Of a DNA stretch of 64,000 nucleotides, positions 14,648-45,920 are shown in pieces (positions within the stretch are counted from its first letter, which is position 1; each line of letters begins with the position of its first letter). The position numbers and the translations under genes were made by a program. This DNA is from Acidimicrobiia bacterium (GTDB taxonomy: Bacteria > Actinomycetota > Acidimicrobiia > Spongiisociales > ZC4RG35). The notes below the pieces were generated by a model, which ran no database searches, was not told the DNA's origin, and saw nothing but the letters and a program-made list of their open reading frames with translations. The stretch spans positions 608,001 through 672,000 of the forward strand of contig OZ244034.1 in the NCBI GenBank assembly GCA_965215185.1. Direction: 5' to 3'.

Positions 14648-14838
14648 GCACGGACAACCTGATCGAGAATTCGCCCAAACTGGGGTCTTCGCGTGTCCCC
14701 ACCAGTCGGTTCGGGCATGGGCGGGTTACCGCCATTCCGTTCTTTATCAATCTAGCCTTCGCGGTACGGAGGTTCCTCAACCGATATTCCCCACGCTGAC
14801 ACCCCTTGATCCTCCGGATGGCGGCGCAGAACCTGTTT

Positions 14839-17335: not shown

Positions 17336-17431
17336 GATATCTGTAAGGCGATGTGCCCCAACAACGTTGAATAGGCGGTGTTGCGATCCCCGTAACCTAA
17401 GGCAGATGGCCGGAACCACCGGGAGATACAG

Positions 17432-27300: not shown

Positions 27301-28398
27301 GGCAATGGAGATGAACTCTCCTTCTGGCGCCTCGGCTTGGCCGCTCCAGTTGCTGCCCCAGCAGGTTACGGTTCCATCGGCGCCAATGGCGCAAGAGTGG
27401 CCGGTGCCGGCGGCGATGCCGGTGAACTCTCCTCCCGGTGGGTCGGATTGGCTGTCGCTATTGTCTCCCCAGCAGGTGACATTGCCGTCAGCGCCTAACG
27501 CGCAGGAGTGGCTGGTTCCGGTGGCGATGGCGGTGTAAGTCCCGAGCGGTGGGGTGGCCTGTCCGGAAGCGTTGTTTCCCCAGCAGTTGATCGTCTTGTC
27601 GTTCTGCAATGCACACGTAAAGTTCCACCCGGCGGCAATGGCGATGAAACCAGGCGGCGGTTCCACCTGCTGGGAGTGGTCGATAACCAGGTTGTAGGCG
27701 CGGTGCAGGAAGGTGGCTATCTGGGCGCGGGTAAGGGCGCCATGTGGGTCAAAGAAGTCATCACCCACTCCGGCAGTGATGCTGTAGAACAGCGCCCACC
27801 CCACCGACCCATCCGCCCAGAAACCGCGGGGTACGTCGTTGAAAAGATCTGATCCTCGGACCTCTTCACCGGTGATGGGACCCCCCACGAGGCGATTCAA
27901 GCGGTGCAGGAAGGTCACCATTTGCGCACGGGTGATAAGCCCGAGCGGGTCAAAAACTCCTTCTGTCACCCCGACAGTCACCCCGTGGTTTACCGCCCAG
28001 CCGATGTGTGCGTTGGCTTCGTGCCAGGCAGGTACATCTTTGAACCGGTCCGAACCGAGGACGCCGCCCAGGTTTGCGGGGCCTTCCAGAAGGGTATTGA
28101 TCCGGCTGAGGAATGTCACCATCTCCGCCCGGGTGGCCAGACCATCGAGATGGAACACCCCTTCCCCGGTCCCGTTCATGACCCCGTTTTCCACTGCCCA
28201 CCCCACCGCTTGGTCAGCCCAGTGTCCGACCGGCACATCCTCGAATCGGTCGGAACCCCTGGGATCGTCTGCACCAGTCGGCACAGGGCTGTCTTGGCCG
28301 ACTGGAGGTGGAGGCTCCTGTGCGCTTACGACAGTCGTCACCATCAGGGCGAGCGCCAACAGCGGAACAATGCGCGGTCGGAAGCTCTTTATTAACAT
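24382..28398 (-). CDS. Secreted S-layer-homology (3 x SLH) protein with 29 RCC1/BLIP-II-type repeats
   Basis: Signal peptide; three FxDVP..W..A.GW...G.T.G...F.P.G..TRA(E/Q) SLH motifs; 29 HSCxxxxDxTxxCWG repeats of about 37 aa. Confidence 0.9.
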   Translation of the reverse strand: MLIKSFRPRIVPLLALALMVTTVVSAQEPPPPVGQDSPVPTGADDPRGSDRFEDVPVGHWADQAVGWAVENGVMNGTGEGVFHLDGLATRAEMVTFLSRINTLLEGPANLGGVLGSDRFKDVPAWHEANAHIGWAVNHGVTVGVTEGVFDPLGLITRAQMVTFLHRLNRLVGGPITGEEVRGSDLFNDVPRGFWADGSVGWALFYSITAGVGDDFFDPHGALTRAQIATFLHRAYNLVIDHSQQVEPPPGFIAIAAGWNFTCALQNDKTINCWGNNASGQATPPLGTYTAIATGTSHSCALGADGNVTCWGDNSDSQSDPPGGEFTGIAAGTGHSCAIGADGTVTCWGSNWSGQAEAPEGEFISIAAGFAHSCGIRPDQTAVCWGFDSVGQATPPPGTFTAISAAIIHSCGLRTDGTITCWGNASGLADPPSGSFTTISAGIADYSCAIRSHQTPVCWGDEFEELPDRVSGPFTSISAGLDHACGVGADQTVTCWGYNPSTQAEPPTGPFFAIKNGPGHSCAVRTDNTLACWGSNKNGQATPPEGAFTTTISLGNDHSCGIRADLTISCWGDNTSGQTDAPTGEYTAVTTGDGYSCGLAADRTITCWGNRDYAQTLYPSGEFTSLTSAARHSCAIRTDNTVACWGYNTSGQVIPPEGRFTAVAASDNVSCGLRTNLTLACWGNDSHGQATPPTGRFKSLTAVTDHSCAVRTDNTLACWGNDTHRQATPPPGTFTIDIAIGDQHSCGILTDGVVACWGDDTYGQATPPSGTFTAIGATGNLSCGVRSDETVTCWGLPSVIPLPAAVHYEEPSPVSQEEPPSAFIAVATGADHSCGIRIDQTVACWGDNSYGQATPPPGTFTAITAKSANSCAIRTDQTVACWGASLGPPEGQFTSISTGGGGHTCGIRPDGSIACWGLSTQNQGDPPEGRFTTVGAGIDHSCAIRDDRTVTCWGDNSQGQADLVEGEYTAITVGANHSCALGIDRTIHCWGATDHGQATPPPGTFTSIASGSLHSCAIRTDQTVACWGRNTVGQANPPGGEFIAVAPGFDHTCGIGADQTITCWGINAASQAEVPPGPFTSLTSGSGYSCGLGTDGSVSCWGDNEYGQASPPQMRFTYLDSGWLHSCAIGTDQSIFCWGINLTGQTQAPEGDYTTVAAGTDHSCAIGTDNAVTCWGNNEHGQTDPPVEEFNTIAAGNGFSCGIRTDSTITCWGDSRGDKTNPPEGVFDALAAGSSHSCALGTDNAITCWGYNEHGQTDAPEGSFTHISVNEHFSCGIHTDDTIVCWGRAEDSAVDALGDQFLSITVGVGYSCGIDPDGTISCWGRLPQAPLPPGVQYIP

Positions 28399-28542
28399 GG
28401 GGTCCTTTAGTTTCACATGGTGGGGCCAATTTGAGCGAGGCGCCCTGCTCCTGGACCTGGTCCGTAGCCCACCGCAGAGTGAATCGGGTTGGGCCAATCT
28501 AACAAGGGAAGGGATAAGAGAGTCGGCAGAGGTGCATACGGG

Positions 28543-29244
28543 TCAGGAGAGGGTGGGATAAGCGTCGTACCCGTCTATCCCGATGGTCACCGAGGTGACG
28601 GGTTGAGCCTTTTTCTCCATGATTGCGGCCAGTCGTTTTTCCAGATGCCCGTAGCCGACCACCCGGGTCACCAGAGGCAGGTCCAGCCAATCTGCTATCT
28701 CTTGGGCCCTAGCCATTGTTCCTGCCTCTTCGACTTGGATCAGGTAGATAACTCGGCGGTAGTTTCCGAACATCATCTCCTTTAATTCCGGGTGCTGTTC
28801 GAGCCTCAGTCCCTCCATGACCAGGTTCTTCCAGGACTTGACCAGGAAATCGGTTAGAAAAAAGGTACCGGGTTCTTCCTCCATCAGCCTGACGAACTCT
28901 TCACCGCCGAACATCTCGTAGCAATGAGGTCCGAGGGTCCGCGCCACGCCGGCTTTCTTGAGCATGGGATCCAGATCCGGGGCCCCGCAATGTCCATATA
29001 CCACCACTTGGCGGTCGAAATCCTCTCGGGTTTCGGCCAGCTTCTCGGCGACCGCTCCCGTGATCAACTGGGGCCGATTGTGGAGTCGGGCGTTAATAAC
29101 CCGCAGTTCCACATCCCATCCGTAGCGGTCGATGATCTCGCGCAGTTCCTTGCCCAGGGCGGCGCACGCCACCATCACTGTCCGTTCTTGTTTGTTCTTC
29201 GAATGGGCCCCAGGTGAAAGTTGTTGGGAGGAGGGCGGATTCAT
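28543..29244 (-). CDS. DUF1638 family protein (corrinoid-methyltransferase accessory)
   Basis: VACAALGKE, LHNRPQLI, YGHCG, GPHCY, EEPGTFFLTDFL, MFGNYRRVIY; ATGA overlap with the upstream gene. Confidence 0.85.
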   Translation of the reverse strand: MNPPSSQQLSPGAHSKNKQERTVMVACAALGKELREIIDRYGWDVELRVINARLHNRPQLITGAVAEKLAETREDFDRQVVVYGHCGAPDLDPMLKKAGVARTLGPHCYEMFGGEEFVRLMEEEPGTFFLTDFLVKSWKNLVMEGLRLEQHPELKEMMFGNYRRVIYLIQVEEAGTMARAQEIADWLDLPLVTRVVGYGHLEKRLAAIMEKKAQPVTSVTIGIDGYDAYPTLS

Positions 29245-29567
29245 GTCCCGCTTTGTCCTGCCTGGTGGGCGGCGATGAGCGATCGACGCAGTTCCGAAAG
29301 ACGGGTGGAGGGATACTGGGCTTCGAGCCTCTCGACAATCCGGTCCGCCACTTCGTCCGGTCTTCCAGGCTCGGTAACCGGATCTGCCCATGACCAGCCG
29401 GCCATGTATGAGTCCTCGTCGGTGCGCCCGGTCATGGTGGCCACCGAATCCACCGCCACCTGAAAACGTTTGCTCAGATGCTTCCTCACCCGGCCCCGGC
29501 GACCATCCCTGGTTGCCTTCACACCAACGGGGATTTCATCCCAATAAAGAATCTGATAGGTGGCCAT
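29241..29567 (-). CDS. 'Virulence factor' (PF13769-like) small protein
   Basis: ILYWDEIP..V, LSKRFQVAVDSVA, TDEDSYMAGW, LEAQY; GGAGG SD. Confidence 0.82.
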   Translation of the reverse strand: MATYQILYWDEIPVGVKATRDGRRGRVRKHLSKRFQVAVDSVATMTGRTDEDSYMAGWSWADPVTEPGRPDEVADRIVERLEAQYPSTRLSELRRSLIAAHQAGQSGT

Positions 29568-29606
29568 CCCCGGCCTCCACGGTGGAGAATGTGTCCTGCA
29601 GGAATG

Positions 29607-30818
29607 TTAGCGAGGTTGCAATTCGGCGACCATACCTGCCACAAGAGCCGCCCGGGGCGCCAGGCTGTCGAGTTCGATGTATTCGTTGCGGGTCATCAGG
29701 CCACCCCCTACCGGTCCCAGTCCATCCAAAACGGCGGTGGTAGGGCTGCGAAAGGACACGCTTCCGGCGGCCGGCGACCGGAAGGCTTCGATATCGATGG
29801 AGAGATGTCCTCCCACCCGTTTGGCAATGGAGAGCAAATGGGAGGCGCCCTTATCCCAATGGACACCGGGCCGGTGATTGTGGGTGAGAAGCTTGATCTT
29901 TGCGCCGGAGTCGTTTTCCACCGAGCGAGCCAAGGCGGTCATGCGCTCCACGACCGCCTCCCAGAACTGGGCACCCCTGGTCCGGATGTCCACAATCGCG
30001 GTGGCTTGACCGGGAGTGACACTGCGGCGCCGTCCGGCCTGGGCCATAGTCACCGTTATGTAGGTGCCCTGGGCTTCATTGGTGAGACCGTTGAAAGCCA
30101 CGACCAGCCAGGCAAGAGCCTCCAAAGCGTTCACCCCCTCCGCATGGGCAGACCCGGTGTGGGATTCTTCCCCGGTGACCTCTATCTTCCCTACGCCGAT
30201 ATGCCCGCGGCTGGCCATCAGCTTCCCACCGCGGCGGGCACATTCCATGCCGAAACACCAATCGGCCCCGTTCCCCGCCTGCTCGATAACCGGGCGGGAG
30301 CCAAGGCTGCCGGCCTGTTCGTCTCCGGAGAGCACCAGGGCGATGTCAGGGAGGTCCACGCTGAGGTGACGCAGCGCCTCCAGAGCGGCGACCGTCACCA
30401 CCAGCCCTCCTTTCATATCTGCCACTCCCGGCCCATAGGCTCTTCCTCCCTTGATCCGGAAACCGAATCCGGCCAGACTCCCGCGTGGGAAGGCGGTGTC
30501 GAGATCTCCCACAAGTAGCAGGCGACCGGGCTTTTCTCCGGCCCGAAACCCCGAATACGCGGAGCCCAGGCCGCTATAGGGGATACCCGGGGACATCAGT
30601 TCCTCCAGCCAGCGCAGCGAATCGGGAATCGGCTGCTGTTTCACCTCCGTGAAGGCAAACCCCAACGGCTCCAATTTCCCGATGACGAGCGAAGCCACCT
30701 CTGCCACTCCGACTGGATCGGAGGCATGGCTCTCGATGTTTACCAACTGCTCCAGCAGCTCGTTCAGAAGCGGCTGCCGGGATTCAAGCCACTGTCTGGC
30801 CAAGTGTCCGATTCCCAT
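29607..30818 (-). CDS. M20 family metallo-amidohydrolase (carboxypeptidase G2-like)
   Basis: LVNIES, GDLDTAF, YGPGVADMKGG, DEQAGS, HTG..GVNA, LDGLGPVGG; some metal-ligand positions are atypical (GDLD for GHxD, DEQ for DEE). Confidence 0.82.
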   Translation of the reverse strand: MGIGHLARQWLESRQPLLNELLEQLVNIESHASDPVGVAEVASLVIGKLEPLGFAFTEVKQQPIPDSLRWLEELMSPGIPYSGLGSAYSGFRAGEKPGRLLLVGDLDTAFPRGSLAGFGFRIKGGRAYGPGVADMKGGLVVTVAALEALRHLSVDLPDIALVLSGDEQAGSLGSRPVIEQAGNGADWCFGMECARRGGKLMASRGHIGVGKIEVTGEESHTGSAHAEGVNALEALAWLVVAFNGLTNEAQGTYITVTMAQAGRRRSVTPGQATAIVDIRTRGAQFWEAVVERMTALARSVENDSGAKIKLLTHNHRPGVHWDKGASHLLSIAKRVGGHLSIDIEAFRSPAAGSVSFRSPTTAVLDGLGPVGGGLMTRNEYIELDSLAPRAALVAGMVAELQPR

Positions 30819-30885
30819 AGCCGTCAAGGATATTGGGAACTCGCGGATGTAAGATATTCTCCGGACAAACAAGGAGTTAAAACCT

Positions 30886-31910
30886 ATGGCAAAAAAGACA
30901 GAGTTCGGAGTGCGGCTCCCGGTGGCCGGGCCTTTGGCTAACACGAAGGACATCCGACGTTCGGCGGTGCGCTCCGAGGAACTGGGATTCGATGCCCTGT
31001 GGGTCCACGACTTCCTGGCCTGGACTACCTTCCAGGATCGCCACCACGTTTCGTGCGGGTCCCGCGAGGCGGTGGAAGCCTCCGACTCGCCTCCTGTCTT
31101 CTTTGAGTCCTTGACCAACATGGCGTTCTTGGCGGGAATTACCAACCGGATCCGCATCGGGGTGGCGGTGCTCTGCCTTCCTTACCGCAATCCGCTGGTG
31201 GCCGCCAAACAGGTGGCCAACATCGATGTGCTCAGCAACGGTCGGGTGATTTTCGGGATCGGAACCGGCGCTCCCAAAAGTACCCACAATGTCGACTTCG
31301 AGGTGCTGGGCGTTCCCCGGAAGACCAAATATCACGTGACGCGGGACTATCTGCGGGCCATGCGAACCATCTGGACCGAGGACTATCCCTCCTATCAAGG
31401 CGAGTATTTCAGCTTTCCCGAGACGGAGATCTGGCCCAAGCCGGTGCAAAAGCCCTACCCGCCGATCTGGACCGGCGGTCACGGCCCCACAGCAATGGAC
31501 ATCACCGCCGAGTTTTCGACCGGGTGGATCCCGCCCTGGATCCCACCGGACATTTACCCCGAACGCATCAGCAACCTCGAGCGACTGGCGGCCGAGAAAG
31601 GACGAGCCGGGACCGAGTTCGACATTGCCACCGAGGTGTATGTGTCGTTGGCCGAAACTCGGGAAGAGGCCATCTCCTCGGCGCAGAAGACCTTGGGAGT
31701 GTTGACCGAAGGCTTCGACCACACCGCCACCCAGGAGGCGATCAGCGCCGCGGGTTTGGTGGGAAGCGCCGACGACATCGGAGAAAAGATTGTCAGGTAT
31801 GTGGAGGCGGGCGTCAACCATTACGAGATGAATTCATATACCACACTGTCGATCATCTGCTGGAACAACTCGAGCACTTCGCTTCGGCGGTTGCCCCGGC
31901 GTTCCGTTAG
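30886..31910 (+). CDS. LLM-class oxidoreductase (TIGR03619-like), interrupted by a 1-nt frameshift at about 31831
   Basis: FGVRLP, GFDALWVHD, IRIGVAVL, PKPVQKPYPPIWTGG; the natural C-terminus (FIYHTVDHLLEQLEHFASAVAP*) lies in a different frame ending at 31910. Confidence 0.85.
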
Positions 31911-31953
31911 AGACCTCGGTGAGGCAAAGCATCGGCGAGAAGGAGTCCTCTCC

Positions 31954-32847
31954 TTGAAGACAATCAGATTCCGTGCACCATCGGGGGTTGAGTTGGCGGC
32001 GGATGCCTATCTCCCCGCGGGGAAACGTCCGGCCTCCGGTTATCCGGTGGTGGTGGTTTGCCTGGGATGGGGAAGCGTGAAGGAATTGATGCCCCAATGG
32101 GGCAATGCCCTGGCCACTTGGGGATACGCGGTCCTGATTCCTGACTACCGGGGATTCGGCGCCAGCGGCGGTGAGCGTGGGCGCTGTTTTCCCGACGAAC
32201 ACATCGAGGACATTCGAGCGGTGATGGCCCACGCTGCCGAACTTTCCGAGGTCGACGCGCAGCGGATTGCCTTGCTCGGGGTGAGTTATGGTGGGGCGGT
32301 GGCGGTGGCGGCCGGGGTGGATGACCGCTGCCGGACGGTCATCTCGGTGGTCGGATACGGAAGCGGCGCACGTCACCTGGCCGCGGTGCGCACCCCCGAC
32401 CAGTGGACAGCCTTCCGCTCCCGCCTGACCGAGGACCGGCGGCGGCGGCTCGATGGAACCCCCAGCGAGTCGGTTGATCCCGATGAGATTCTGCTCCGCG
32501 ACGAAGAAGCGCGGGATTGGAGGCGCAGAGTTGAGGCCCAACACCCTCATATGGCGTTTCGGACCACACTGGAGTCGGCCGAAAAGATCGTCTCCTTCCA
32601 TCCGGAGCAGTGCCTTCCCTACACGCCGGGCAAACCGGCCATGTTCATCCACGCCCAGGGGGATACCATGATCCCTGTGGAGGAATCAGAACGTATGTGG
32701 CGCCGCTCGTCGGAGCCGAAGCGCCTAGTGGTGGTTCCCGGTATCGGTCACCATGAAGTGCATCATGGGGAGGGATTTGGTCAGGTCATCTCGGCGGTGC
32801 GGGACTGGTTGGGTGAGCACTTGTCCGAAAGAACGAATGCCCTCTGA
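31954..32847 (+). CDS. Alpha/beta hydrolase (S15/CocE-like)
   Basis: LAADAYLP, DYRGFGASGG, nucleophile GVSYGG, HAQGD, terminal His (GHH); own AGGAG SD before TTG 31954. Confidence 0.85.
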   Translation: MKTIRFRAPSGVELAADAYLPAGKRPASGYPVVVVCLGWGSVKELMPQWGNALATWGYAVLIPDYRGFGASGGERGRCFPDEHIEDIRAVMAHAAELSEVDAQRIALLGVSYGGAVAVAAGVDDRCRTVISVVGYGSGARHLAAVRTPDQWTAFRSRLTEDRRRRLDGTPSESVDPDEILLRDEEARDWRRRVEAQHPHMAFRTTLESAEKIVSFHPEQCLPYTPGKPAMFIHAQGDTMIPVEESERMWRRSSEPKRLVVVPGIGHHEVHHGEGFGQVISAVRDWLGEHLSERTNAL

Positions 32848-33802
32848 CATTGCGCTCCGTTTTGGGCTGGTGCTGCCGCACTTCGGCGCCGACCCGCAAG
32901 TCTCGGGGGTGCTCGAGGCGGCGCAGCAGGCCGAGAGATACGGGTTCCACTCGCTTTGGGTGCGGGATCGGCTAGCTGCCGGGGCTCCCCACGGACTTCT
33001 CTTGGAAGCGGGGGGGATCACCTTCTTCGAGCCGCTCCTCACCTTGGCTGCGGTGGCGGCGGTCACCGAACGCATCACCTTGGGGACGGCCGTGCTGCTG
33101 CCCAACCGCCATCCCTTGCGCCTGATGCAAGAGGTGGGTACGCTCTGGCGGCTCTCGGGAGGCCGGCTGGCTCTCGGGTTGGGTCTGGGGGTCGGACCAA
33201 AGAACTTTGAACCGCTCGGCTTGGATTATTCCAAACGGGTGAAGTTGTTCGAGAACACGGTCGACGCGCTGCGTGGGGTCACTTCCGGTTTTGATGAGGT
33301 GGAGATCGACCCGTCGCCTGGTGGAGGACTGTCGCTTTACTACGGAGGCGTCAGTCGGGCAGCGGTGCGTCGCGCCTTCCAGTGCACCGACGGTTGGATT
33401 GCCGGGCGACTTCCCCGGGACACCTTCCGGGCCCGTATGGAATTGGCGCGCCGGTATGAAGAGCAGATGGGACGCCAGTTGGACATTGCCAGCATGCCCA
33501 TCACGCTGGTCGACTCCGGCGATGGCCGTCATCTCGAAGTCGCCCGCCAGGCGGTGGGGATGCTGGCCCGAAGCGCCGAGGGGGCCGGCGACTGGATAAA
33601 ACCGCCCTCGGGCAAATTCGAGACCGTCGAAGACCTTTCCGGGCTGCTCATCACCGGTTCGCCGGAGCAATGCGCGCAGCAGGCCGCTTCCATGATCGAG
33701 TCCGGTGTGACGCATCTCATCTTCGACCTGCGACTGGTCTTCGATGATTTCCAACGGCAGATCAGGATGCTGGCGGAAGAGGTCATTCCGGTTATTGGAT
33801 GA
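32837..33802 (+). CDS. LLM-class oxidoreductase, paralog of 11717-12685
   Basis: FGLVLPHFG, GFHSLWVRD, EPLLTLAAV, LGTAVLLP, YYGG, IFDLRL. Confidence 0.88.
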   Translation: MPSDIALRFGLVLPHFGADPQVSGVLEAAQQAERYGFHSLWVRDRLAAGAPHGLLLEAGGITFFEPLLTLAAVAAVTERITLGTAVLLPNRHPLRLMQEVGTLWRLSGGRLALGLGLGVGPKNFEPLGLDYSKRVKLFENTVDALRGVTSGFDEVEIDPSPGGGLSLYYGGVSRAAVRRAFQCTDGWIAGRLPRDTFRARMELARRYEEQMGRQLDIASMPITLVDSGDGRHLEVARQAVGMLARSAEGAGDWIKPPSGKFETVEDLSGLLITGSPEQCAQQAASMIESGVTHLIFDLRLVFDDFQRQIRMLAEEVIPVIG

Positions 33803-33958
33803 AACCAACCGGTCGGATTTGTTCCAGGATTGCTCGCCCTGTTAGCTTTTCTGGCCAGATCAGGTGCTAAAGTTGAGGTCTGCGAACCGTGGTGGCCGAG
33901 GCATTCACCTTGAAACACCTAGTTCGCCTGTCGTTTCCGACTTACAGAAAGGTACGAA

Positions 33959-35086
33959 ATGAGACGAATAGCGAAGTTCCTCGCGGCATTGCTCACTCTG
34001 GCCCTTATCGCCGCCGCTTGTGGCGATTCGTCCAGTGACGAAGCCGCCGACGATGGGGGCGTAGACCAGATATTCTTTATTCTGGACTGGGTGCCCAAGG
34101 GGCAGACGTCCCCATTTTATCTCGCTCTTGACAAGGGATTCTGGGCCGAGCGCGGCCTAGCTGTCCAGATCACCCGTGGTTACGGTTCTGGTGACACCTC
34201 CGCCCGTATCGGACTGGGCGAAGGCGACTTCGGCTTTGCCGGAGTAGGCGCTGTGATGCGCACCATCAGTGAGGGGCTGCCGCTTGTTGAAATCGCGGCC
34301 ATCGCCTCCACCGCCCCGACCGCGGTATACGCCGCTGCCGGCGCGGGTGTCAACGGCGACGATCCCACCAGCCTGGTGGGTCTGCGCGGCGCGGTTGACG
34401 CAGGTGATGAGAATGACCAGCTCTTCAAGGCTTTCGCAGGTTCTGCGGGTATCAGCTATGACTCCATCGACTGGCAATACGTGGACGGGGCCGGCATCGG
34501 CTCCATCGCCACAGGCCAGGCTGACTTTGTGATGGACTGGATCACCAACCTCCCCGAGTGGTGGCTGGCCGATCCGCCGATCGAGCCGGAGACCTACTGG
34601 GTGGGCCGCGCGGTCGATATTTACGGCAACGGTCTAATCACCCGTCCCGAGATGTTGGAGAACAATCGTGACATCGCCGAGCGGTTCGTACAGGGCGCCC
34701 TTGCCGGGTACGAGTACGTGATCGAAGGCGGCGTGAGCGCTCATAACGAGTCCATCGACGCCCTCTTCAAGTACAACCCGGAACTGAAGGAACAGCCCAA
34801 CGCCCGGGAGTTCCATCTCGGCAACCTGCAACTCTTCTTGACGCTGATGCTCACCGAAGACGTGCGGGAAGACGGTATTGGCTATTTCGACCCGGACAAG
34901 AAGCAGCGGAGTCTTGACTTCATCAACGACTACCTGCTCTCCTCGCCGTTGACGCTCGACCAGGCGTTCATCTCGGATCCGATCATCGATAGCGGTGATG
35001 TGGAGATCGACGACTTCGACGCCGCCCGCGATGCCCTTGCCACGGTCTTGGGCAGAGCCAACCCACTATCTCCCTTCCTCGGCTGA
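33959..35086 (+). CDS. ABC transporter substrate-binding lipoprotein, NMT1/THI5/SsuA-like
   Basis: Lipobox IAAAC, LDWVP...PFYLALDKGFW..GL.V...GYGS, YGNGLI. Confidence 0.88.
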   Translation: MRRIAKFLAALLTLALIAAACGDSSSDEAADDGGVDQIFFILDWVPKGQTSPFYLALDKGFWAERGLAVQITRGYGSGDTSARIGLGEGDFGFAGVGAVMRTISEGLPLVEIAAIASTAPTAVYAAAGAGVNGDDPTSLVGLRGAVDAGDENDQLFKAFAGSAGISYDSIDWQYVDGAGIGSIATGQADFVMDWITNLPEWWLADPPIEPETYWVGRAVDIYGNGLITRPEMLENNRDIAERFVQGALAGYEYVIEGGVSAHNESIDALFKYNPELKEQPNAREFHLGNLQLFLTLMLTEDVREDGIGYFDPDKKQRSLDFINDYLLSSPLTLDQAFISDPIIDSGDVEIDDFDAARDALATVLGRANPLSPFLG

Positions 35087-35107
35087 GTTTGGGATTCAGT
35101 AATCAAC

Positions 35108-35144
35108 TATCCGGAACCCGCGCCCATGTCGCGGGTTCCGGATA
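35108..35144 (+). terminator. Intercistronic stem-loop after the substrate-binding protein gene
   Basis: Perfect 15-bp stem TATCCGGAACCCGCG/CGCGGGTTCCGGATA, 7-nt loop, no U-tract. Confidence 0.65.
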
Positions 35145-35166
35145 ACCCCTCATAGAAACTCCACGG

Positions 35167-35967
35167 ATGGGTATCGAACTCCAAGGTCTGGGCAAGATCT
35201 TCCAGACCAGCGATCTCACTGTCGAGGCCCTGCGCGACATCTCGGTAAAGGTCTCTGACACCGAATTCGTCAGCATCATCGGACCCAGCGGATGCGGGAA
35301 AAGCACCCTGCTCCGACTGGTTTCCGGTCTGATCCCCCCTACCTCGGGGAGCGTCTCAATTGATGGTGTCCCGGTGACGGGGCCGGCGGGGAATATCGGT
35401 TTCGTGTTTCAGGCGCCGACCTTGCTCAAGTGGCGTACCGTCTTCAAAAACGTGATGTTTCCCTACGAAGTACTTGCCTCCCAAAAGCGAGCGGTCATGT
35501 CCCGGCAGGAATATGAGGACCGGGCGCAGCTTTTGCTGGAGATGGCGGGGATCGAGGAGTTCCGGGACGCCTATCCCAAGCAGCTCTCGGGTGGAATGCA
35601 GCAGCGGGTCTCGATCTGTCGTGCGCTTCTCCACGACCCGACGCTCCTGCTGATGGACGAACCGTTCGGGGCTCTGGACGAATTCACCAGGGAGCGCATG
35701 AACGAAGAACTGATCCGGATCTGGCGGGAGACCCAAAAGACCGTGTTCTTTGTCACTCACCACATACCTGAGGCGGTGTTCCTATCAGACCGGATTCTGG
35801 TGATGTCATCTCGCCCGGGGACCATCCTCGGGGAGATAAAGGTGGATCTGCCCCGGCCCCGCAAGGCCGAGATGCGTGACAGCGTGGCATTCCTCGAGCA
35901 GGTGGTGATCACACGTCGCATGATCGGCTCCGGCGACGGACATGGGAATTCCAAAGGAACCGTGTGA
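35167..35967 (+). CDS. ABC transporter ATP-binding protein (NitT/TauT family)
   Basis: GPSGCGKST, LSGGMQQR, LLMDEPFGALD, VTH. Confidence 0.95.
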   Translation: MGIELQGLGKIFQTSDLTVEALRDISVKVSDTEFVSIIGPSGCGKSTLLRLVSGLIPPTSGSVSIDGVPVTGPAGNIGFVFQAPTLLKWRTVFKNVMFPYEVLASQKRAVMSRQEYEDRAQLLLEMAGIEEFRDAYPKQLSGGMQQRVSICRALLHDPTLLLMDEPFGALDEFTRERMNEELIRIWRETQKTVFFVTHHIPEAVFLSDRILVMSSRPGTILGEIKVDLPRPRKAEMRDSVAFLEQVVITRRMIGSGDGHGNSKGTV

Positions 35968-36773
35968 GCTCGCGTCTGCGTGACGCGGAGGCGGTCGAAG
36001 CCGTCGCGCCGAGGTTGGGAGAGCGAGCGGTCCGCATTCGCCGCGTGGTCGACCCGCTGGTGTTCGCCCTGCTCTTTGTGGTCGCATGGCAGGTTTTCAT
36101 ATGGATCACCGGGTTTCACTCGGTGGTGCTGCCCCCGCCCGCCAAAGTCCTCAATGTGCTGGTGCATCAAGGTGACTTCCTGGTCCGAAACATGCTCACC
36201 ACCATGATCACCATCGGTTGGGGTTTTTTCCTGGGAGGGGTCTTCGGGTTTGTGGCGGGTGTGTTGAGCCACCACTTCGAACGGGTGAAAAGGGCTATAC
36301 ATCCGATTCTGGTGGCGCTGTATGTCATCCCCAAGGCGGTGTTTATTCCCCTGTTCATTCTGTGGTGGGGGGTCGGCTTCCAGTACAAGCTGGTGGTGAC
36401 CCTGCTTTTAGCGTTCTTTCCAGTCACTGAGAACACCATCACCGGGCTGACAGGGGTGGAGCGGGAGATGGTCGAACTCACCCAATCCCTTCGGGGAAGC
36501 AGATGGTTCGGTTTTCGCAAGGTGTCCTTGCCCTTCGCCCTGCCCTTTGTGCTGGCCGGGTTGCGCATCGCCCTTACCGAGTCGTTCATCGGAGGGGTGC
36601 TCAGTGAGATACTGGTGCCCGGCAGCGTCGGGATCGGCTCGCGAATCGTGGAAGCGGCTGCGTTCTCAAACACCGAGTTCATCATTGCCTCCATCATGGT
36701 GGTGGCCGCATTCGGCATTGTCGCCTACTTCCTATTCCTGTGGGTGGAGCGCAGGCTGACGTTTTGGGTATGA
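35964..36773 (+). CDS. ABC transporter permease (NitT/TauT family)
   Basis: LPPP, IPKAVFIPLFILWWG, multiple TM helices; GTGA overlap. Confidence 0.9.
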   Translation: MSSRLRDAEAVEAVAPRLGERAVRIRRVVDPLVFALLFVVAWQVFIWITGFHSVVLPPPAKVLNVLVHQGDFLVRNMLTTMITIGWGFFLGGVFGFVAGVLSHHFERVKRAIHPILVALYVIPKAVFIPLFILWWGVGFQYKLVVTLLLAFFPVTENTITGLTGVEREMVELTQSLRGSRWFGFRKVSLPFALPFVLAGLRIALTESFIGGVLSEILVPGSVGIGSRIVEAAAFSNTEFIIASIMVVAAFGIVAYFLFLWVERRLTFWV

Positions 36774-37579
36774 GAGACACCTCCGTTTCCGATCAGCCCG
36801 CTGGGCTATTGGTCAGGGGAGCGCGGCGGCTTTGGAGCTACCGAGAACTGCTCCTGGTGCTGGTGGGCATCGTCCTGTTCTGGATGTTCATGATCGAGTG
36901 GCGCGACTTTCATCCCATTGTGCTGCCCACTCCCGGAGCGGTGATCAAAGCGCTGTTCGAAAACATCAATACTTATGTGGAGGCGGGTTTCGTCACTTTC
37001 TACGAGATGATTCTCGGTTTCATCGCGGGGGGCGCCCTCGGGTTCTCCTCGGCGATCGGAATCTTCTACTCACCATTCCTGAGGCGTTCCCTTTATCCGC
37101 TTCTGCTGGGCTTTCGGATCGTTCCCAAGGTGGCGTTCGTCCCGCTTTTCTTGGTTTGGTTCGGGATCGGGGTGGGCGTGAAGGTGGCTCTGGCCAGCTT
37201 CGCGATCTTCTTTTTGATCCTCATCCAAACCGGGCTGGGTCTGACCGGTGTCGATCCGGCGCTGATTGAATTGGGCCGGTCGCTTCGGATGAGCGAAGTG
37301 GCGCTGCTGCGAAGGATCCGCCTGCCGGCGGCGTTGCCGGCCATCATGGTGGGGGTCAAGCTGGGAATCACCTACGCTCTCACCAATGTGGTGGTGGCCG
37401 AGATGGTGGTGGCCACCAATGGGCTCGGTTTCCTGGTGGTTGAGGCCCGCTCGTTCATCAAGACCAACGAGATGATCGCGGCCATATTCGTGGTGGCGTT
37501 TATCGGGCTGGCGGTCTTCGCCGTGGGGCTGTGGGTTGAACGCAAAACCGTGTTCTGGTATCTGGAGGCCGATCACTGA
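36770..37579 (+). CDS. ABC transporter permease (NitT/TauT family)
   Basis: LPTP, VPKVAFVPLFLVWFG, RLPAALP, VVAEM..GLG; ATGA overlap. Confidence 0.9.
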   Translation: MRDTSVSDQPAGLLVRGARRLWSYRELLLVLVGIVLFWMFMIEWRDFHPIVLPTPGAVIKALFENINTYVEAGFVTFYEMILGFIAGGALGFSSAIGIFYSPFLRRSLYPLLLGFRIVPKVAFVPLFLVWFGIGVGVKVALASFAIFFLILIQTGLGLTGVDPALIELGRSLRMSEVALLRRIRLPAALPAIMVGVKLGITYALTNVVVAEMVVATNGLGFLVVEARSFIKTNEMIAAIFVVAFIGLAVFAVGLWVERKTVFWYLEADH

Positions 37580-38584
37580 GCCGGGAGGTCGAAATGGGCG
37601 ATTCCAGTCGGCGGTCGACGGCGCGGTTGTTTCGATATCGGTAGGTCTGGCACCAGCGGCGGCAGAGGTCTTGGGCTGCCCCGGGCCAGGAGGGGAATTT
37701 GAAGTCGAAACCTTGTTCTTGAAGGATGCCGGGGAGTACCCGTCGGCTTTGTAGGACCAGTTCGGACTCGGACCGAAGGAGAAAGTGCCTACTTCGAGCA
37801 TCCATTTGGCCGATGGCAATCCGAAGGGCATACCCCAGGCAGTGGGCAGGTCGCGCATGAAGTCCGCGTTCGGCAACGGGTTGGGCGCCGAGATGTTGAT
37901 TGGGCGGCTGATATCTTCGTGATCGATCATCCACCGCACGGCTCGATAAAAGTCCCGGTCGTGCACCCACGACACGTATTGACGGCCGTCGCCCGCTTTT
38001 CCTCCCAACCCATAGCGAACCAGGGTGAGTAACGCACCGAACGCCCCGCCACGGTCGGGACTCAGGGTAATGGCAGAGCGCATTTTGACCTTGCGGGTAC
38101 CGGGGACTTCGACTTGGTCGAGCGCCTGCTCCCATGAGTGGGCAACGTCGTAACTAAAGTGCCAGGTGTCGGGGTCATCGGGGTGGTTTCCCAAGATGCC
38201 CGTGGCTTCATCGTGGGGGGCGTCGTAGCGGTGGATATAGACGGTGGCGGTGCTGGCCTGTAACCAGACTCGGGGCGGCCGGTTGGCGGCGGCGATAACC
38301 TCACCTACGAGATGAGTGGTCCCGACCCGGGATTGCTTGAATTCTTGGCGATGCCGGGTGTGGTATCGGCAGTTGACGCTCCGTCCGGCCAGGTTGATAA
38401 CCACATCGGCGCCGTTGATCTCATTGTCCCACTCGCCGTGGTTTGTCCCATTCCACTGGACAGTCCGCCAGGGTCCCGTGGCCGCTTGTCGGCTGATCAG
38501 GACCACTTCATGTCCCTCGGCATGAAACTTCCGAGACAACACGGTTCCGATCTGTCCGGTACCGCCCGGGATAACAACCTTCAC
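37500..38584 (-). pseudogene. TIGR01777/YfcH-like NAD-dependent epimerase, frameshifted near the 3' end
   Basis: PGGTGQIG, INLAGRSVNCRY, WLQASTAT, GDGRQYVSWVH; the conserved tail ESELVLQSRRVLPGILQEQGFDF is in another frame after about 37783. Could be a sequencing error in an intact gene. Confidence 0.7.
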
Positions 38585-38743
38585 AACTCTCTATGCAACC
38601 TTTCCAGAATTCCAGCTGACCGGAAAGCCCCAAATCCTCGAACGCCCTGCCGATGGACAGTGGGGGCAATCCGGAGAAAACGCGTGGTCTCGCCAAGGAG
38701 TTTCAAAGTGGGATTAGGCTCTCCCGAGTGTTGTCTCAACGGG

Positions 38744-39133
38744 CTATTGCCACCCGGGGGGTTGATCGGAAACAATGTGAAAATCTCGTCCGGCGGGAGC
38801 GTAGATCTCCAGCAGCACTGCTTTGCTTTCCCCGGAACTCCCCGCTGCATGAGGAACGCCGGGTGGGATGAAAACCACATCGTCGGTTCGGAACTCATGG
38901 AAACGACCGTCGATCACCACCTGGACCACCCCTTCCAAAACCAGATATACGTTCTCGGCGTGTTGGTGATAGTGATAAGGGCCCATCCCCGAGTCCTGGT
39001 TGAGGACATTGATGTGCATGTCCACTTTCTGGGCGCCGTGGGCGGGTCCCACCAGATGTTTGGTGATGCCCCTATCGAGGCGCATGATGGTCTGCTCGGC
39101 TTTTGCGATGCTGGTCAGCCGCACTTTTGTCAT
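38744..39133 (-). CDS. Cupin-2 domain protein
   Basis: PYHYHQHAENVYLVLEG and DDVVFIPPGVPH motifs; AAAGGAG SD before ATG 39133. Confidence 0.9.
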   Translation of the reverse strand: MTKVRLTSIAKAEQTIMRLDRGITKHLVGPAHGAQKVDMHINVLNQDSGMGPYHYHQHAENVYLVLEGVVQVVIDGRFHEFRTDDVVFIPPGVPHAAGSSGESKAVLLEIYAPAGRDFHIVSDQPPGWQ

Positions 39134-39316
39134 ATCTGCTCCTTTGCCGAGGTGGAGACTACCCGTACAGGAATCCGCTGCAGTACCGGCCCTTGCACCC
39201 CTCCCCCGGAGCAGGCCCTCCCATCTGGAGCCCGGGACCGTGGTGAGGATCGGCTTTTTGCCGGTTTGGCTATTTAGGTACCCAACTTTGTTACCCGTCG
39301 TCCCTACATTTAGCGT

Positions 39317-41521
39317 GTGATGATGTCGAAGATTGTGCAAGGCCGGTTGGCCCCGACGATCTTCTCATGTGCTGTGATGGGGATGGTTGTGGTGGGGGGA
39401 GGATCCGCACTTGCCCAGGATCAGAGGCCGGAAGTGAGGCTTTCGGTGGAGGGTGGGATAGATGGCTGGGTTGATCCCTCCTGGCCGATGACGCTCCACG
39501 CCCGGATTGAGAGCGACATCCTCTTGGTGGGAGAGCTTTTGGTAGTGCAAGGACAAGGGGTGATCAGGGTGGAGGTGGAAGTGCCCGCCAACGGGGTGAG
39601 AAGCTTTGAAGTGGTGATGAGTCCTCCCAGGGCGGGTGGGGGAGCGGTAATCGTGCGGGTCATTCCCGAGGGCTCCCCGGATGACCAACCGGCAGCCTCG
39701 GCGCTCTTCCGGCCCCGGGTGGCTGAAGAAGAATTGCTGGTTGGATTGGTGGATCTCCCGCGCTTGGGACAGGTCCTGGGAGAAGTGCGGTCGGCGGTGA
39801 GCGGAGTGCCGATCACGCCCGTGGCGGTGGAGCATGAATCGCCGCAACTGGAGGAGGGGTATTTGTATCAGCTTTCCTATCTGGTAATGGACCAGCCGCG
39901 CCCACTGACCCCGGCCAGCGCATCCTGGCTGGAGGGAGGGGGACGGCTCATCACCACTTTTGCGGCACTGGAGTCGATGGGGCTCGATGTGACCTTCTGG
40001 GGTCTGTTCCCGGGGGTCGACGAGCAGATCGCCTGGTATGGAGTGGGGGATGGCGAGGTGCTGGCGCTCGACAGTCTGTCGGGCCGGGAGAACCGCCTGT
40101 GGGCCTTGCTGCTTCGGCCCCCGCCGCTGGCGCTGGGTGAATACGGCAATCTCGACTTTCGGGGACGGGCCTCCTTGACCCAGGCTGCCCTTTCTTCCGA
40201 CCCTCAGATACCTAGTTATCCCTGGCTGCCAGTTGTGGTGGTGCTCTACGCGCTGGTGGTCGGTCCGCTCAACCTGGGGATCCTGCGCCGTCGTGGCCGT
40301 TCGGAGTGGGCGTGGGTAACCATTCCCGTCCTCGGCTTGGCCGGGGTGGTGGCTTTCTGGATAGTTGGTGCGGGCGGGGTGAACGAAACGTTTCTGTCCC
40401 ACGGCACGGTCAAGGTGGCGGGGCCTGTTCCGGTGACGCGCAGCGGGTTGGTGGCGGCTACCAGTCGCGCCGCCAGCTTCGAGTTGATGTTCGACTCCGA
40501 CTGGGAGGTCTTTCCCTACACCATCGACGAGTTACCCGAAGACGCTGCTCAGCCGAGAATAAGCGGCGCCGGTGTCTACCGATACGATCTGCCTTCGCTG
40601 GGTTGGTTGTCTGTCAATGCCTTCCGCCGGGGAGAGCCCGTCGAAGCCGATCTGGTGGTTTCCGAACACGGCGTGGAGTTGGTGAACAACAGCTCAGCGG
40701 ACATTGCGGCGTGGGGAGTCCATTCTTTTCCGAAGGTCTTGATAGGCGAAGGGGTGCCGGCGGGTCAGAGCGGTTCTCTCAGTTGGGAGAGTGTCTTCAG
40801 TGCGGGGTCGTATCATGTTTTTGGAGATGCCTTCTGGGAACAGGGTATGTTGGGGGACAACTCTTGGGAAGGGAACGGTAGATGGCCGGAGGTGATCGGC
40901 GCACTGGAAAACACTGCGCGTTGGTCGGGAATGGTGGATGCCCCGTTCTACGTCTTTGCGGTTGCGGAGGAGACCTTCACCTACATTTCGGTGAATGGGC
41001 GATACCCGTCGGTGGAGGGGCTCACTCTCACGCTGTTTCCGATCTCCGCCGAGCAGATGGCCGAGGCGGGATGGGCGTATCCCCGTCCGGTCTGGTTGGA
41101 TAACCCTCCTGGCCAGCAGAATTTTGACCCAAATTTTGTCTTTGCCGAGCAGTGGATCGTCAGCTACCGGTTGCCGAGGGGACTTTCCAGGCCGCTTCGT
41201 TTGGAATTGGGTGGCTTTATTGGATTCGAGGGTGGCTTTGATCGCTTCGTCGCCGATACCGACTCCGAGCGGACATGGGAGGCATGGGACTGGGACGCCA
41301 CGCAGTTCTTTCCTATCGATGTCGGCGTGGACCTCGATCCCGAGCGGTTTGTGGCGCCCAGTGGTGAAGTGCTGGTAAGGGCGTTTACTAGCGATGCGGG
41401 GGTGCCGCTGCCCGTGGACGCCATTGTGGAGTGGGGGGACCTTGAGGCAGTGGTTGACTTCCCGGTCCGACTGCCGCCTGTCCCAACGGACCCCCCGAGA
41501 CCATCAGGTGGCCGCCAATGA
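39317..41521 (+). CDS. Large secreted/membrane protein of ABC-2/MoxR/vWA operons (function unknown)
   Basis: Signal peptide (ALA-Q), VEVPANG, WLEGGGRL, central TM hairpin LYALVVGPLNLGILRRRGRSEWAWVTIP. Confidence 0.7.
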   Translation: MMMSKIVQGRLAPTIFSCAVMGMVVVGGGSALAQDQRPEVRLSVEGGIDGWVDPSWPMTLHARIESDILLVGELLVVQGQGVIRVEVEVPANGVRSFEVVMSPPRAGGGAVIVRVIPEGSPDDQPAASALFRPRVAEEELLVGLVDLPRLGQVLGEVRSAVSGVPITPVAVEHESPQLEEGYLYQLSYLVMDQPRPLTPASASWLEGGGRLITTFAALESMGLDVTFWGLFPGVDEQIAWYGVGDGEVLALDSLSGRENRLWALLLRPPPLALGEYGNLDFRGRASLTQAALSSDPQIPSYPWLPVVVVLYALVVGPLNLGILRRRGRSEWAWVTIPVLGLAGVVAFWIVGAGGVNETFLSHGTVKVAGPVPVTRSGLVAATSRAASFELMFDSDWEVFPYTIDELPEDAAQPRISGAGVYRYDLPSLGWLSVNAFRRGEPVEADLVVSEHGVELVNNSSADIAAWGVHSFPKVLIGEGVPAGQSGSLSWESVFSAGSYHVFGDAFWEQGMLGDNSWEGNGRWPEVIGALENTARWSGMVDAPFYVFAVAEETFTYISVNGRYPSVEGLTLTLFPISAEQMAEAGWAYPRPVWLDNPPGQQNFDPNFVFAEQWIVSYRLPRGLSRPLRLELGGFIGFEGGFDRFVADTDSERTWEAWDWDATQFFPIDVGVDLDPERFVAPSGEVLVRAFTSDAGVPLPVDAIVEWGDLEAVVDFPVRLPPVPTDPPRPSGGRQ

Positions 41522-44937: not shown

Positions 44938-45920
44938 GCAACACCCCATCTGTAGAACCGGCCGAGTTCTCCGCCCGCCTCGATCAGGCCCGAGCCGAAA
45001 TCGCCAAGGTGATTGTCGGCCAGACGGCTCTGGTCGAAAAGGTCCTGGTAGCGGTGCTGTGCGAAGGACATCTCCTCTTGGAGGGAGTTCCCGGGCTCGG
45101 CAAGACCCGCCTGCTCACCACCTTGGGTCAGGTGCTGCAGATCGGGTTCGGGCGCATCTCTTTTACTCCCGACCTGATGCCGGCCGACATCGTGGGCACC
45201 AATGTTCTGCAGTCTGGTGAATTCCGTTTCCATGCCGGGCCGGTGTTTACCAATCTGGTTCTGGCCGACGAGATCAATCGGGCCACCCCCAAGACTCAGT
45301 CGGCCCTCTTGGAGGCAATGGCAGAGCGGCGGGTGACAGTGGCGGGTGCAACCCGCCCGCTACCTCGGCCTTTTATGGTGATGGCCACCCAGAACCCTTT
45401 GGAGATGGAAGGGACCTACCCACTTCCCGAGGCGCAATTGGACCGGTTCATGCTCAAGGAATTGGTGCCCTTTCCTCCTTCCGATGATCTGGTGGAGATA
45501 CTCCGTCGCACCACCGGTGGGCCTGAGGCCCGGCCCGAGGGTGTCTTGGAGGGAAGCCATCTCACCGCGATGGCCGCGATGGTCCGGCAACTTCCCGCCG
45601 GCAAGCACCTGCTTCGATACGCCTCCACCCTGGTGGGCGCCACCCATCCCGACTCCCCGGGCGCCACCGAAGGTATTCGCCGCTATGTGCGGGCAGGGGC
45701 CAGTCCCAGGGGAGCGCAAGCCCTCATCCTGGGAGGAAAGGCCCTGGCAGTGATGGACGGGCGCCCCAATCTGTCGGCGGGCGACATCCGCCTACTGGCT
45801 CATCCGGCTCTTCGGCACCGATTGGTTCTGGGATACGAGGCGGTGGTGGACGGCGTCACCTCCGATCGGTTGATAGACGAAGTGCTGGAGGCTCATCCCG
45901 AGCCGGTGGCTGAGGGCTGA
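44934..45920 (+). CDS. moxR: MoxR family AAA+ ATPase
   Basis: GHLLLEGVPGLGKT, FTPDLMPAD, LADEINRATPKTQSALLEAM, ATQNPLE.EGTYPLPEAQLDRF. Confidence 0.95.
   Translation: MSNTPSVEPAEFSARLDQARAEIAKVIVGQTALVEKVLVAVLCEGHLLLEGVPGLGKTRLLTTLGQVLQIGFGRISFTPDLMPADIVGTNVLQSGEFRFHAGPVFTNLVLADEINRATPKTQSALLEAMAERRVTVAGATRPLPRPFMVMATQNPLEMEGTYPLPEAQLDRFMLKELVPFPPSDDLVEILRRTTGGPEARPEGVLEGSHLTAMAAMVRQLPAGKHLLRYASTLVGATHPDSPGATEGIRRYVRAGASPRGAQALILGGKALAVMDGRPNLSAGDIRLLAHPALRHRLVLGYEAVVDGVTSDRLIDEVLEAHPEPVAEG

Follow-up and report, generated by a model that had tools for sequence, protein, structure and literature searches.

A conserved importer and enzyme gene set of uncultured Acidimicrobiia that may take up and break down a small nitrogen-containing ring compound

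A stretch of 64,000 nt of an Acidimicrobiia bacterium (contig OZ244034.1, assembly GCA_965215185.1), referred to below as the window, carries genes for an ATP-binding cassette (ABC) importer with a lipoprotein binding protein of the NMT1/THI5 type, for oxidoreductases of the luciferase-like monooxygenase (LLM) superfamily, and for an alpha/beta hydrolase, an M20 hydrolase, a cyclic amidohydrolase and a cupin. This gene set is genuine, conserved among uncultured Acidimicrobiia and undescribed; a paper describing it was not found in a literature search. We regard it as a chromosomal uptake-and-catabolism set, the substrate of which, judged by analogy, would most likely be a small nitrogen-containing ring, i.e. 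a cyclic amide or ureide of pyrimidine- or hydantoin-like kind, and we give this reading about an even chance. A preliminary description of the DNA had proposed an island for the import and opening of a heterocycle. Linkage of the genes, the amidohydrolase and the fold of the binding protein support an N-heterocycle or cyclic amide as the imported compound, while the island and the allantoin-type roles of the M20 enzyme and the cupin were not supported. The most distinctive parts of the set are a clade of M20 enzymes and an uncharacterised LLM family.

Genes were called from the listing of open reading frames (ORFs) and from Pfam and NCBIfam scans; their coordinates are collected in the table below. 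All parts of the arrangement that had been claimed were present, i.e. a co-oriented run of LLM1, hydrolase, LLM2, binding protein, ATPase and two permeases, with the M20 gene divergent and the cupin gene nearby, and the outer ends at 29607 and 39133 were exact. The frames of the hydrolase and LLM2 overlap by 11 nt and those of the ATPase and permease 1 by 4 nt in the ORF listing. The two permeases are indeed different, as they cross-matched in tblastn with just about 30-35% identity. A scan of 13 ORFs between 28.5 and 42.5 kb revealed no helix-turn-helix or other regulator (DNA-binding) domain, in agreement with the earlier statement that no regulator is visible.

With a 26-member profile of the binding protein, 13 loci (L001 to L013) were obtained from species-representative genomes, and gene presence in them was scored by tblastn with the window proteins. 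Eleven loci are titled Acidimicrobiia, Acidimicrobiaceae or "bacterium", L008 is titled Gammaproteobacteria and L012 Nakamurella. L001-L009 share the gene order of the window and have all kept LLM1, the hydrolase, LLM2, the binding protein (85-92% identical), the ATPase and both permeases, with 69-83% identity for LLM2 (50% in L012) and 74-88% for permease 1. The divergent M20 gene is full-length in eight of these nine, the copy of L007 ending at the contig edge. Over the 13 loci, the hydrolase was found in 11 (L001-L009, L011, L012), LLM1 in 10 (L001-L009, L011), LLM2 in 10 (L001-L009, L012), the M20 gene in 10 (L001-L009, including the cut copy of L007, and L011) and the cupin in 8 (L001, L002, L007-L012); the ATPase and both permeases lie downstream of the binding protein in 12 of the 12 loci having downstream sequence. 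L011 and L012, with binding proteins 63% and 55% identical to that of the window, and L008, which also counts among the nine, have these families close to the transporter as well, but arranged and oriented differently. L012, for example, shows on one strand LLM3, hydrolase, LLM2, binding protein, ATPase, two permeases, isochorismatase, a thiamin pyrophosphate (TPP) enzyme, aldehyde dehydrogenase and cupin. That the families were reshuffled and yet kept in these three loci argues for selection over inherited synteny. The co-location of homologues on which the preliminary description had made its proposal depend was thus found in L001-L009, with subsets in L008, L011 and L012.

The binding-protein family is narrow. 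Of 78 proteins matched at E <=1e-10, 57 were 48-90% identical over at least 89% of the query, two were partial and the others were at most 31% identical, and "Acidimicrobiia bacterium" was the only organism name on the family matches. Equally narrow is the hydrolase family (92 proteins at E <=1e-20, 50 of them at least 59% identical), and both families are metagenome-only. About 12 hydrolase-family matches have a longest contig of the same length as that of a binding-protein match, which indirectly suggests that both genes lie on one contig. A plasmid collection yielded matches to the binding protein of at most 30% identity (8 records), with unrelated neighbourhoods on two Deinococcus plasmids, and no match to the hydrolase or LLM3. 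If the genes were neighbours without a common pathway, i.e. a generic importer beside unrelated oxidoreductase and hydrolase genes with conservation stemming from genome relatedness, this would agree with the close identity of the binding proteins in the nine fully syntenic loci, with the lack of enzymes directly upstream of the binding protein in L010 and L013, and with the split set and two frameshifted genes of the window. However, the differing orders and orientations in L008, L011 and L012, the overlapping or abutting frames and the matching narrow distributions of the hydrolase and binding-protein families argue against such a chance association, which we consider very unlikely.

The region is core chromosome and not a compositional island. 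The GC content over 28-40 kb is 0.595-0.629, with values from 0.58 to 0.651 over the window as a whole. Core genes of actinobacteria (mfd, mazG, eno, ftsB, ppx, ribF and pnp) surround the region, and no mobile-element gene was seen. A horizontal-transfer island was rejected because of this composition and gene context.

Two reading frames of the window had to be corrected. LLM1 has a 1-nt deletion between 31832 and 31833, where the window reads GAGATGAA-TTC versus AAG in 5/5 aligned relatives; of ten blastn alignments with related loci, nine showed exactly one gap and that of L007 showed three. Due to this deletion, the usual C-terminus and the TAG at 31908-31910 fall in a different frame, and the listed 653-aa ORF 30886-32847 is a read-through from LLM1 into the hydrolase. 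A natural LLM1-hydrolase fusion gene was rejected, because relatives carry a stop codon and separate genes. The second case is a YfcH-type gene of the short-chain dehydrogenase/reductase (SDR) superfamily between permease 2 and the cupin, which has a 1-nt deletion near 37787 versus L003, the only one of the 13 related loci to carry it. Its N-terminal part gave 195 bits with TIGR01777 (cut-off 207), DUF1731 being in the other frame, and the gene probably lies outside the uptake-breakdown system. The two single-base deletions lie within 6 kb, and neither occurs in relatives; they suggest either assembly indel errors or real, ongoing gene decay. Likewise, the set of the window, being split and having a frameshifted LLM1, may reflect either sequence indel errors or a partly decayed copy.

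Relatives revealed partners outside the run. A cyclic amidohydrolase and LLM3 adjoin the M20 gene in L001, L002, L005, L006 and L009, and the amidohydrolase alone does so in L004; the window orthologs of this pair were found at 11.7-14.2 kb on the minus strand, 81-84% identical to the genes of the relatives. Both genes are also carried by L008 and L011 (58-72% identity), and LLM3 is 50-61% identical in L008, L010, L011 and L012. LLM3 orthologs in relatives adjoin the M20 gene or the cupin. In total, LLM3 is present in 9/13 loci and the amidohydrolase in 8/13. The nearest solved structure of the amidohydrolase is 1gkr, the non-ATP L-hydantoinase of Arthrobacter (218.5 bits), followed by allantoinase (165.4) and D-hydantoinase (153), and it matches allantoinase, dihydroorotase and hydantoinase models, always under their equivalog cut-offs. 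In the window, a tRNA-Leu(taa) abuts the amidohydrolase start, at the point where the gene order leaves that of the L001 type; since the long ORF 12741-14345 overlaps this tRNA, the true start of the amidohydrolase lies downstream. Four loci have an isochorismatase-type gene, which comes after the cupin and LLM3 in L008, L010 and L011 and also occurs in L012; it scored 55-58 bits to RutB and 42-46 bits to biuret hydrolase. In L010, the permeases are followed at about 6 kb by cupin, LLM3 and isochorismatase, and this locus further encodes two multi-domain RidA proteins, an Amidohydro_2 protein and an AraC-type regulator. L008 has, 1.3 kb past the permeases, a flavin mononucleotide (FMN) reductase 49% identical to the product of the window gene at 16763-17419, which is a possible flavin supplier with a weak link to the system. 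L011 (1239-4601) further has, a few kb from the main cluster and beside a TPP enzyme, another NMT1-type binding protein that differs from the first, as well as another M20 enzyme, of ArgE/DapE type.

The binding protein is a member of the NMT1 family (PF09084; 97.3 bits, gathering cut-off 20.5), and its lipobox residue C21 is invariant in 26 sequences. Its AlphaFold model (predicted local distance difference test score 91) has a type II periplasmic binding fold and is nearest to the thiamin-bound structure 4nmy (template modelling (TM) score 0.82) and the formylaminopyrimidine-binding structure 3ix1 (TM 0.85), both scores target-normalised, at 18-22% identity. Thi5 enzymes rank next and then TauA, PqqT, SsuA and CmpA/NrtA, with TM 0.65-0.74 for TauA/SsuA. 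Thus ThiY and the thiamin-binding NMT1 proteins are the closest folds and also the closest sequences among solved structures, whereas the window protein is about 75 residues longer. Such ligands would fit the salvage of a vitamin-derived pyrimidine, i.e. a thiamin-breakdown product, by a system of the ThiXYZ, YlmB and TenA kind in place of nutrient catabolism, and YlmB, the deformylase of thiamin pyrimidine salvage, is an M20 enzyme. That pathway is, however, defined by a TenA thiaminase II partner and by TPP-riboswitch control; no TenA domain was present among the 13 scanned ORFs, and no TPP or other riboswitch was detected in 29000-39500, for which Rfam gave no match even with E values up to 1. 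Furthermore, identity to 4nmy and 3ix1 is low, the M20 enzyme is of the carboxypeptidase G2 (CPG2) kind with an altered site, and three LLMs, the hydantoinase-like enzyme, the esterase-like hydrolase and the cupin would be superfluous. Because of the missing TenA and riboswitch and of too many additional enzymes, vitamin salvage is most improbable.

The importer itself has the architecture of the NitT/TauT type. Its ATPase and permeases scored highest with SaoA/SaoP, TauB/TauC and SsuB/SsuC models, all below the respective cut-offs (ATPase: SaoA 230.5 vs 360, TauB 214.9 vs 357, SsuB 170.2 vs 395 bits; permeases: SsuC 105.3 vs 347, TauC 91.5 vs 342 bits). Together with the FMN reductases of the window and L008 and with SsuD as the best solved match of LLM1, these scores would be in line with acquisition of an organosulfur compound (sulfonate, sulfone or taurine-like) of the ssu/tau/sfn kind, in which FMNH2-dependent LLM monooxygenases desulfonate the imported substrate. 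We see little probability in this, as no protein fell inside the ssu/tau clades (SsuA_fam 18.3 vs 163.5, SsuD 83.8 vs 518.2, SfnG 77.1 vs 383 bits), nor inside the rut clades (RutA 41.6 vs 498.3 bits), a check that the preliminary description had named. In addition, the binding protein is, in its fold, more like binders of thiamin and formylaminopyrimidine than like SsuA or TauA, and the hydantoinase-like enzyme, M20 enzyme, amidase and cupin have no role in desulfonation. A sulfonate reading by way of the TPP enzymes was rejected, since those found in L011 and L012 scored just 67-145 bits (vs 620-676) and are therefore not Xsc.

LLM1 (179.0 bits) and LLM3 (177.3 bits) pass the cut-off of the F420_Rv2161c family TIGR03619 (166.9 bits), and LLM2 (131.7 bits) fails it. 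The match of LLM1 to SsuD, an FMN enzyme, amounts to just 76 bits; the best solved match of LLM3 is the F420-dependent hydroxymycolic acid dehydrogenase. L008 also encodes an LLM of the F420_G6P family (TIGR03557; 4779-5762, 232.3 bits, cut-off 210.4), of which L011 has a 78%-identical copy (19551-20531), and this enzyme could regenerate F420H2. No F420 biosynthesis domain was found among 46 ORFs scanned within the window. According to Mascotti et al. 2018 (PMC6279831), as far as its accessible text goes, F420-dependent LLMs form one clade that is split into reductases and dehydrogenases, and that text yielded no sequence motif separating F420 from FMN use. The LLM cofactor may be either F420 or FMN, with the name of TIGR03619 and the linked F420_G6P-family LLM as indirect signs for F420. 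In titles and abstract openings of the papers listed on Rv2161c (TIGR03619), no functional study was apparent, and on ring cleavage by LLMs only papers on 4-hydroxypyridine and on reductive uric acid degradation turned up.

The alpha/beta hydrolase has a Ser111 (in GVSYGG)-Asp237-His266 triad; in an alignment of 19 sequences, H266 never varies, while S111 and D237 are kept in at least 90% of them. The nearest solved structure is 7qjm (E 2.4e-48), an uncharacterised alpha/beta hydrolase; the model of the N-acyl-homoserine lactonase UilS gave 146.6 bits (cut-off 400), and no match to RutD was obtained at E 1e-5 or better. In the cupin, the 3-His-1-Glu metal motif (H54, H56, E60, H95) is invariant in 9/9 sequences, while the protein gave weak and generic cupin matches only. 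Ureidoglycine aminohydrolase was matched at just E about 1e-3, which does not bear out a cupin that finishes ureide breakdown.

The M20 enzyme is related over its full length to CPG2 (1cg2, E 2.3e-37), its nearest solved structure, and gave 206 bits with NCBIfam PRK06133 (cut-off 349). It is CPG2-like and not of the allantoate or carbamoyl amidohydrolase type, contrary to the ureide role first proposed. The residues that we take to be metal ligands are those known from the CPG2 and DapE literature. The atypical ligands already noted in GDLD and DEQ are real, and a third replacement was added: in the alignment with CPG2, Asp105 (in GDLD) takes the place of the first His, Gln168 (in DEQ) that of the Glu following the general base and Met375 that of the C-terminal His. 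A canonical di-zinc M20 enzyme (CPG2, DapE, ArgE) has five ligands, namely His, a bridging Asp, two Glu and a final His, and three of them are thus replaced. The dimerisation domain, the bridging Asp134, the general base Glu167 and the ligand Glu192 are retained. The Asp/Gln/Met site is invariant in 8/8 orthologs, down to 47% identity.

A deep search with the M20 enzyme of 1.84 billion representatives gave 224 proteins at E <=1e-30, of which 150 were listed; after removal of 19 sequences below 340 aa, the alignment comprised 131. At the first position, the second-site Glu and the C-terminal position, the canonical His/Glu/His pattern was found in 96 of these 131 listed matches, His/Glu/Cys in 16, His/Glu/Val or Leu in 3, exactly Asp/Gln/Met in 10, Asp with a near-variant or gapped second site in 4, and His/Gln/Met in 2. 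All Asp-first and His/Gln/Met proteins were within the 16 best full-length matches listed, and the Asp/Gln/Met site thus sets a small clade apart. By analogy with DapE, the pattern suggests that the second metal site has been lost and that the first has become all-carboxylate. The clade offers a clean case for the remodelling of a di-metal hydrolase site.

CPG2 cleaves C-terminal glutamate, and as the nearest characterised relative of the M20 enzyme it is one of several signs that would suit a non-heterocyclic substrate, i.e. an ester, a lactone or a compound of the N-acyl or N-carbamoyl amino acid type. The LLMs would then be Baeyer-Villiger-type oxygenases or alcohol/carbonyl oxidoreductases, the hydrolase an esterase or lactonase and the M20 enzyme an aminoacylase or carboxypeptidase. 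The UilS model is the top family match of the hydrolase, whose best solved relatives are esterase-like, LLM3 is nearest to a hydroxymycolic acid dehydrogenase, and L012 has an aldehyde dehydrogenase and a TPP enzyme. Yet the UilS score is far under its cut-off, the recurring cyclic amidohydrolase and isochorismatase-type amidase indicate amide or ureide ring chemistry, and the fold of the binding protein is nearest to binders of pyrimidine moieties. We consider a non-heterocyclic substrate unlikely.

Every enzyme family of the set has precedents in the Rut, Hyu/Pyd or All heterocycle routes. The earlier statement that the set matches none of the rut, pyd and all gene sets is borne out, as no equivalog cut-off was reached for rut, ssu/tau, all, pyd/hyu or ert enzymes; nor was one reached for UilS or CPG-type enzymes. 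The Rut pathway consists of the LLM RutA, the isochorismatase-type amidase RutB, the RidA protein RutC, the alpha/beta hydrolase RutD and the flavin reductase RutF. The window operon resembles it in its LLMs and alpha/beta hydrolase, an FMN reductase is present in the window and L008, and an isochorismatase-type amidase (L008, L010, L011, L012) and RidA-domain proteins (L010) occur in relatives only. However, the LLMs of the set are short and of the TIGR03619 type (the RutA score being that of LLM1), RutC gave 43.9 vs 169.1 bits (L010) and RutB 58.2 (L008) and 55.2 (L012) vs 377.95 bits, an ABC importer stands in place of RutG, and the set adds a cyclic amidohydrolase, an M20 enzyme and a cupin, while the window has no RutB- or RutC-like gene. 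The hydantoin and reductive pyrimidine pathways, which combine a hydantoinase or dihydropyrimidinase with an M20-type N-carbamoyl amidohydrolase and a transporter, have a parallel in the 1gkr-like amidohydrolase, which directly adjoins the M20 gene and the transporter operon in six relatives. Here the differences are a D-hydantoinase/dihydropyrimidinase score of 214.4 vs 393.25 bits, an M20 enzyme that is CPG2-like with three ligand replacements and not of carbamoylase type, and three added LLMs; genes for a hydantoin racemase or for dihydropyrimidine dehydrogenase were not seen. Against ErtD of ergothioneine breakdown the amidohydrolase gave 209 bits (cut-off 600). Allantoin utilisation involves the same superfamily trio of cyclic amidohydrolase, M20 enzyme and cupin (AllB, AllC and ureidoglycine aminohydrolase), whereas the scores of the set remained low (allantoinase 239.7 vs 357.85, allantoate amidohydrolase 29 vs 452, ureidoglycine aminohydrolase 18.2 vs 200 bits) and its cupin is a single domain of 129 aa. 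In the reductive degradation of uric acid by anaerobes, as outlined in the available part of PMC12507026, a flavin-dependent reductase dearomatises the ring, hydrolases open it and ureido groups are cleaved stepwise. The set may share this reduce-then-hydrolyse logic by analogy only; its enzyme families and hosts are different ones.

From family assignments, linkage, conserved catalytic residues and importer architecture we infer the substrate class of the preferred reading, a small nitrogen-containing ring, as well as the following steps and their order. The lipoprotein binding protein would hand the compound to the NitT/TauT-type ABC importer. Up to three TIGR03619 LLMs would then alter the redox state of the ring or of a side chain, either by reduction with F420H2, as the family name suggests, or by oxygenation with FMNH2, and the L-hydantoinase-like cyclic amidohydrolase would open the ring. 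Hydrolysis of the linear amide, ureido or ester products might fall to the alpha/beta hydrolase with its Ser-Asp-His triad and to the atypical M20 enzyme, with an isochorismatase-type amidase also used in distant relatives, and the 3-His-1-Glu cupin could carry out one further metal-dependent step.

Several findings weigh against a nitrogen-containing ring as substrate. No enzyme reached the curated cut-off of a characterised heterocycle pathway, so that the chemistry rests on superfamily-level analogy, and alpha/beta hydrolases, M20 enzymes, cupins and LLMs act on non-heterocyclic substrates too. Relatedness among the nine well-conserved loci is fairly close. In L013, whose binding protein is 52% identical and whose downstream side is cut off, the 6.2 kb upstream of that gene contain none of the enzymes, and in L010 the AraC-type regulator takes their place directly upstream. 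In the window, the cyclic amidohydrolase lies 15 kb from the M20 gene, as does LLM3, LLM1 is frameshifted, and neither an isochorismatase nor a RidA gene was found. Signs of the cofactor are also mixed, given the nearby FMN reductases of the window and L008 and the match of LLM1 to SsuD.

A narrower form of the ring hypothesis is an undescribed reduce-then-hydrolyse route for a pyrimidine- or hydantoin-like compound, in which F420H2-using TIGR03619 LLMs would replace dihydropyrimidine dehydrogenase, ring opening would be of the L-hydantoinase-like kind and a single-metal, all-carboxylate M20 enzyme would release the carbamoyl or acyl group. In this specific form we rate it as a long shot. If true, it would provide the first substrate for the TIGR03619 (Rv2161c-type) LLM family and a first function for the M20 variant. 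More generally, the set would give that LLM family its first function and would show how a widespread but uncultured actinobacterial class breaks down a nitrogen-rich ring compound. Since uncharacterised clusters of transporter and enzyme genes are common in bacteria, the set is of moderate interest until its substrate is known.

Ahead of LLM1, the intergenic region between it and the divergent M20 gene contains an AGGAG ribosome site and a -10 element resembling TAGAAT; no conserved palindrome was seen there in the alignment of 9 sequences. Generic promoter and terminator scans remained at chance level (3 vs 2.7 expected and 7 vs 8.5 expected, respectively), and the tRNA-Leu was the only Rfam match and RNA gene in the whole window.

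Table. Features of the gene set and its surroundings in the window (positions in nt; aa, amino acids)
Feature	Position	Strand	Basis
LLM3, third TIGR03619 LLM	11717-12685	-	TIGR03619 177.3 bits
Cyclic amidohydrolase (start approximate)	12741-14207	-	Amidohydro_1
tRNA-Leu(taa)	14261-14346	+	ARAGORN; Rfam tRNA 63.3 bits
NADPH-dependent FMN reductase	16763-17419	-	FMN_red E 1.3e-37
M20 hydrolase	29607-30818	-	Pfam Peptidase_M20 and M20_dimer
Divergent M20-LLM1 intergenic region, 67 bp	30819-30885		Alignment of 9 sequences
LLM1 (TIGR03619, F420_Rv2161c family), frameshifted	30886-31910	+	Bac_luciferase E 3.6e-57
Alpha/beta hydrolase	31954-32847	+	Pfam Hydrolase_4, Abhydrolase_1; TTG start, GGAG 9 nt upstream
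LLM2, luciferase-like oxidoreductase	32837-33802	+	Bac_luciferase E 2.4e-41
NMT1/THI5-type lipoprotein binding protein	33959-35086	+	Pfam NMT1 E 1.6e-27; lipobox Cys21
ABC ATPase, NitT/TauT type	35167-35967	+	ABC_tran
ABC permease 1	35964-36773	+	BPD_transp_1
ABC permease 2	36740-37579	+	BPD_transp_1
YfcH-type SDR/DUF1731 gene, frameshifted	about 37637-38584	-	TIGR01777 and DUF1731 in separate frames
Cupin, 129 aa, single domain	38744-39133	-	Cupin_2

Among the other genes of the window, a DUF1638 gene (28543-29178, minus strand) lies directly downstream of the M20 gene; among the related loci, only L003 was found to carry it (84% identity). L003 shares with the window the arrangement ATP-grasp, NifU, DUF1638 and M20, and is otherwise similar; a protein of 1371 aa with 12 RCC1 repeats and an S-layer homology domain, which in the window is encoded between NifU and DUF1638 (24382-28497, minus strand), is absent from it. 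Two proteins of 645 and 734 aa (14806-16743 and 39317-41521, both plus strand) had no Pfam or NCBIfam match. The latter is encoded ahead of an ABC-2 exporter ATPase and permease; in L007 it is met again, at 53% identity, behind the cupin. A run of genes for a MoxR AAA ATPase, a DUF58 protein and a VWA/GATase1-like protein extends over 44934-51701 and presumably resembles Bat-type aerotolerance operons. XdhC/CoxI and CoxG accessory genes were observed at the window edge (61539-63243); a molybdenum hydroxylase of the xanthine/CO dehydrogenase family may lie just outside the window near them and could matter for heterocycle hydroxylation.

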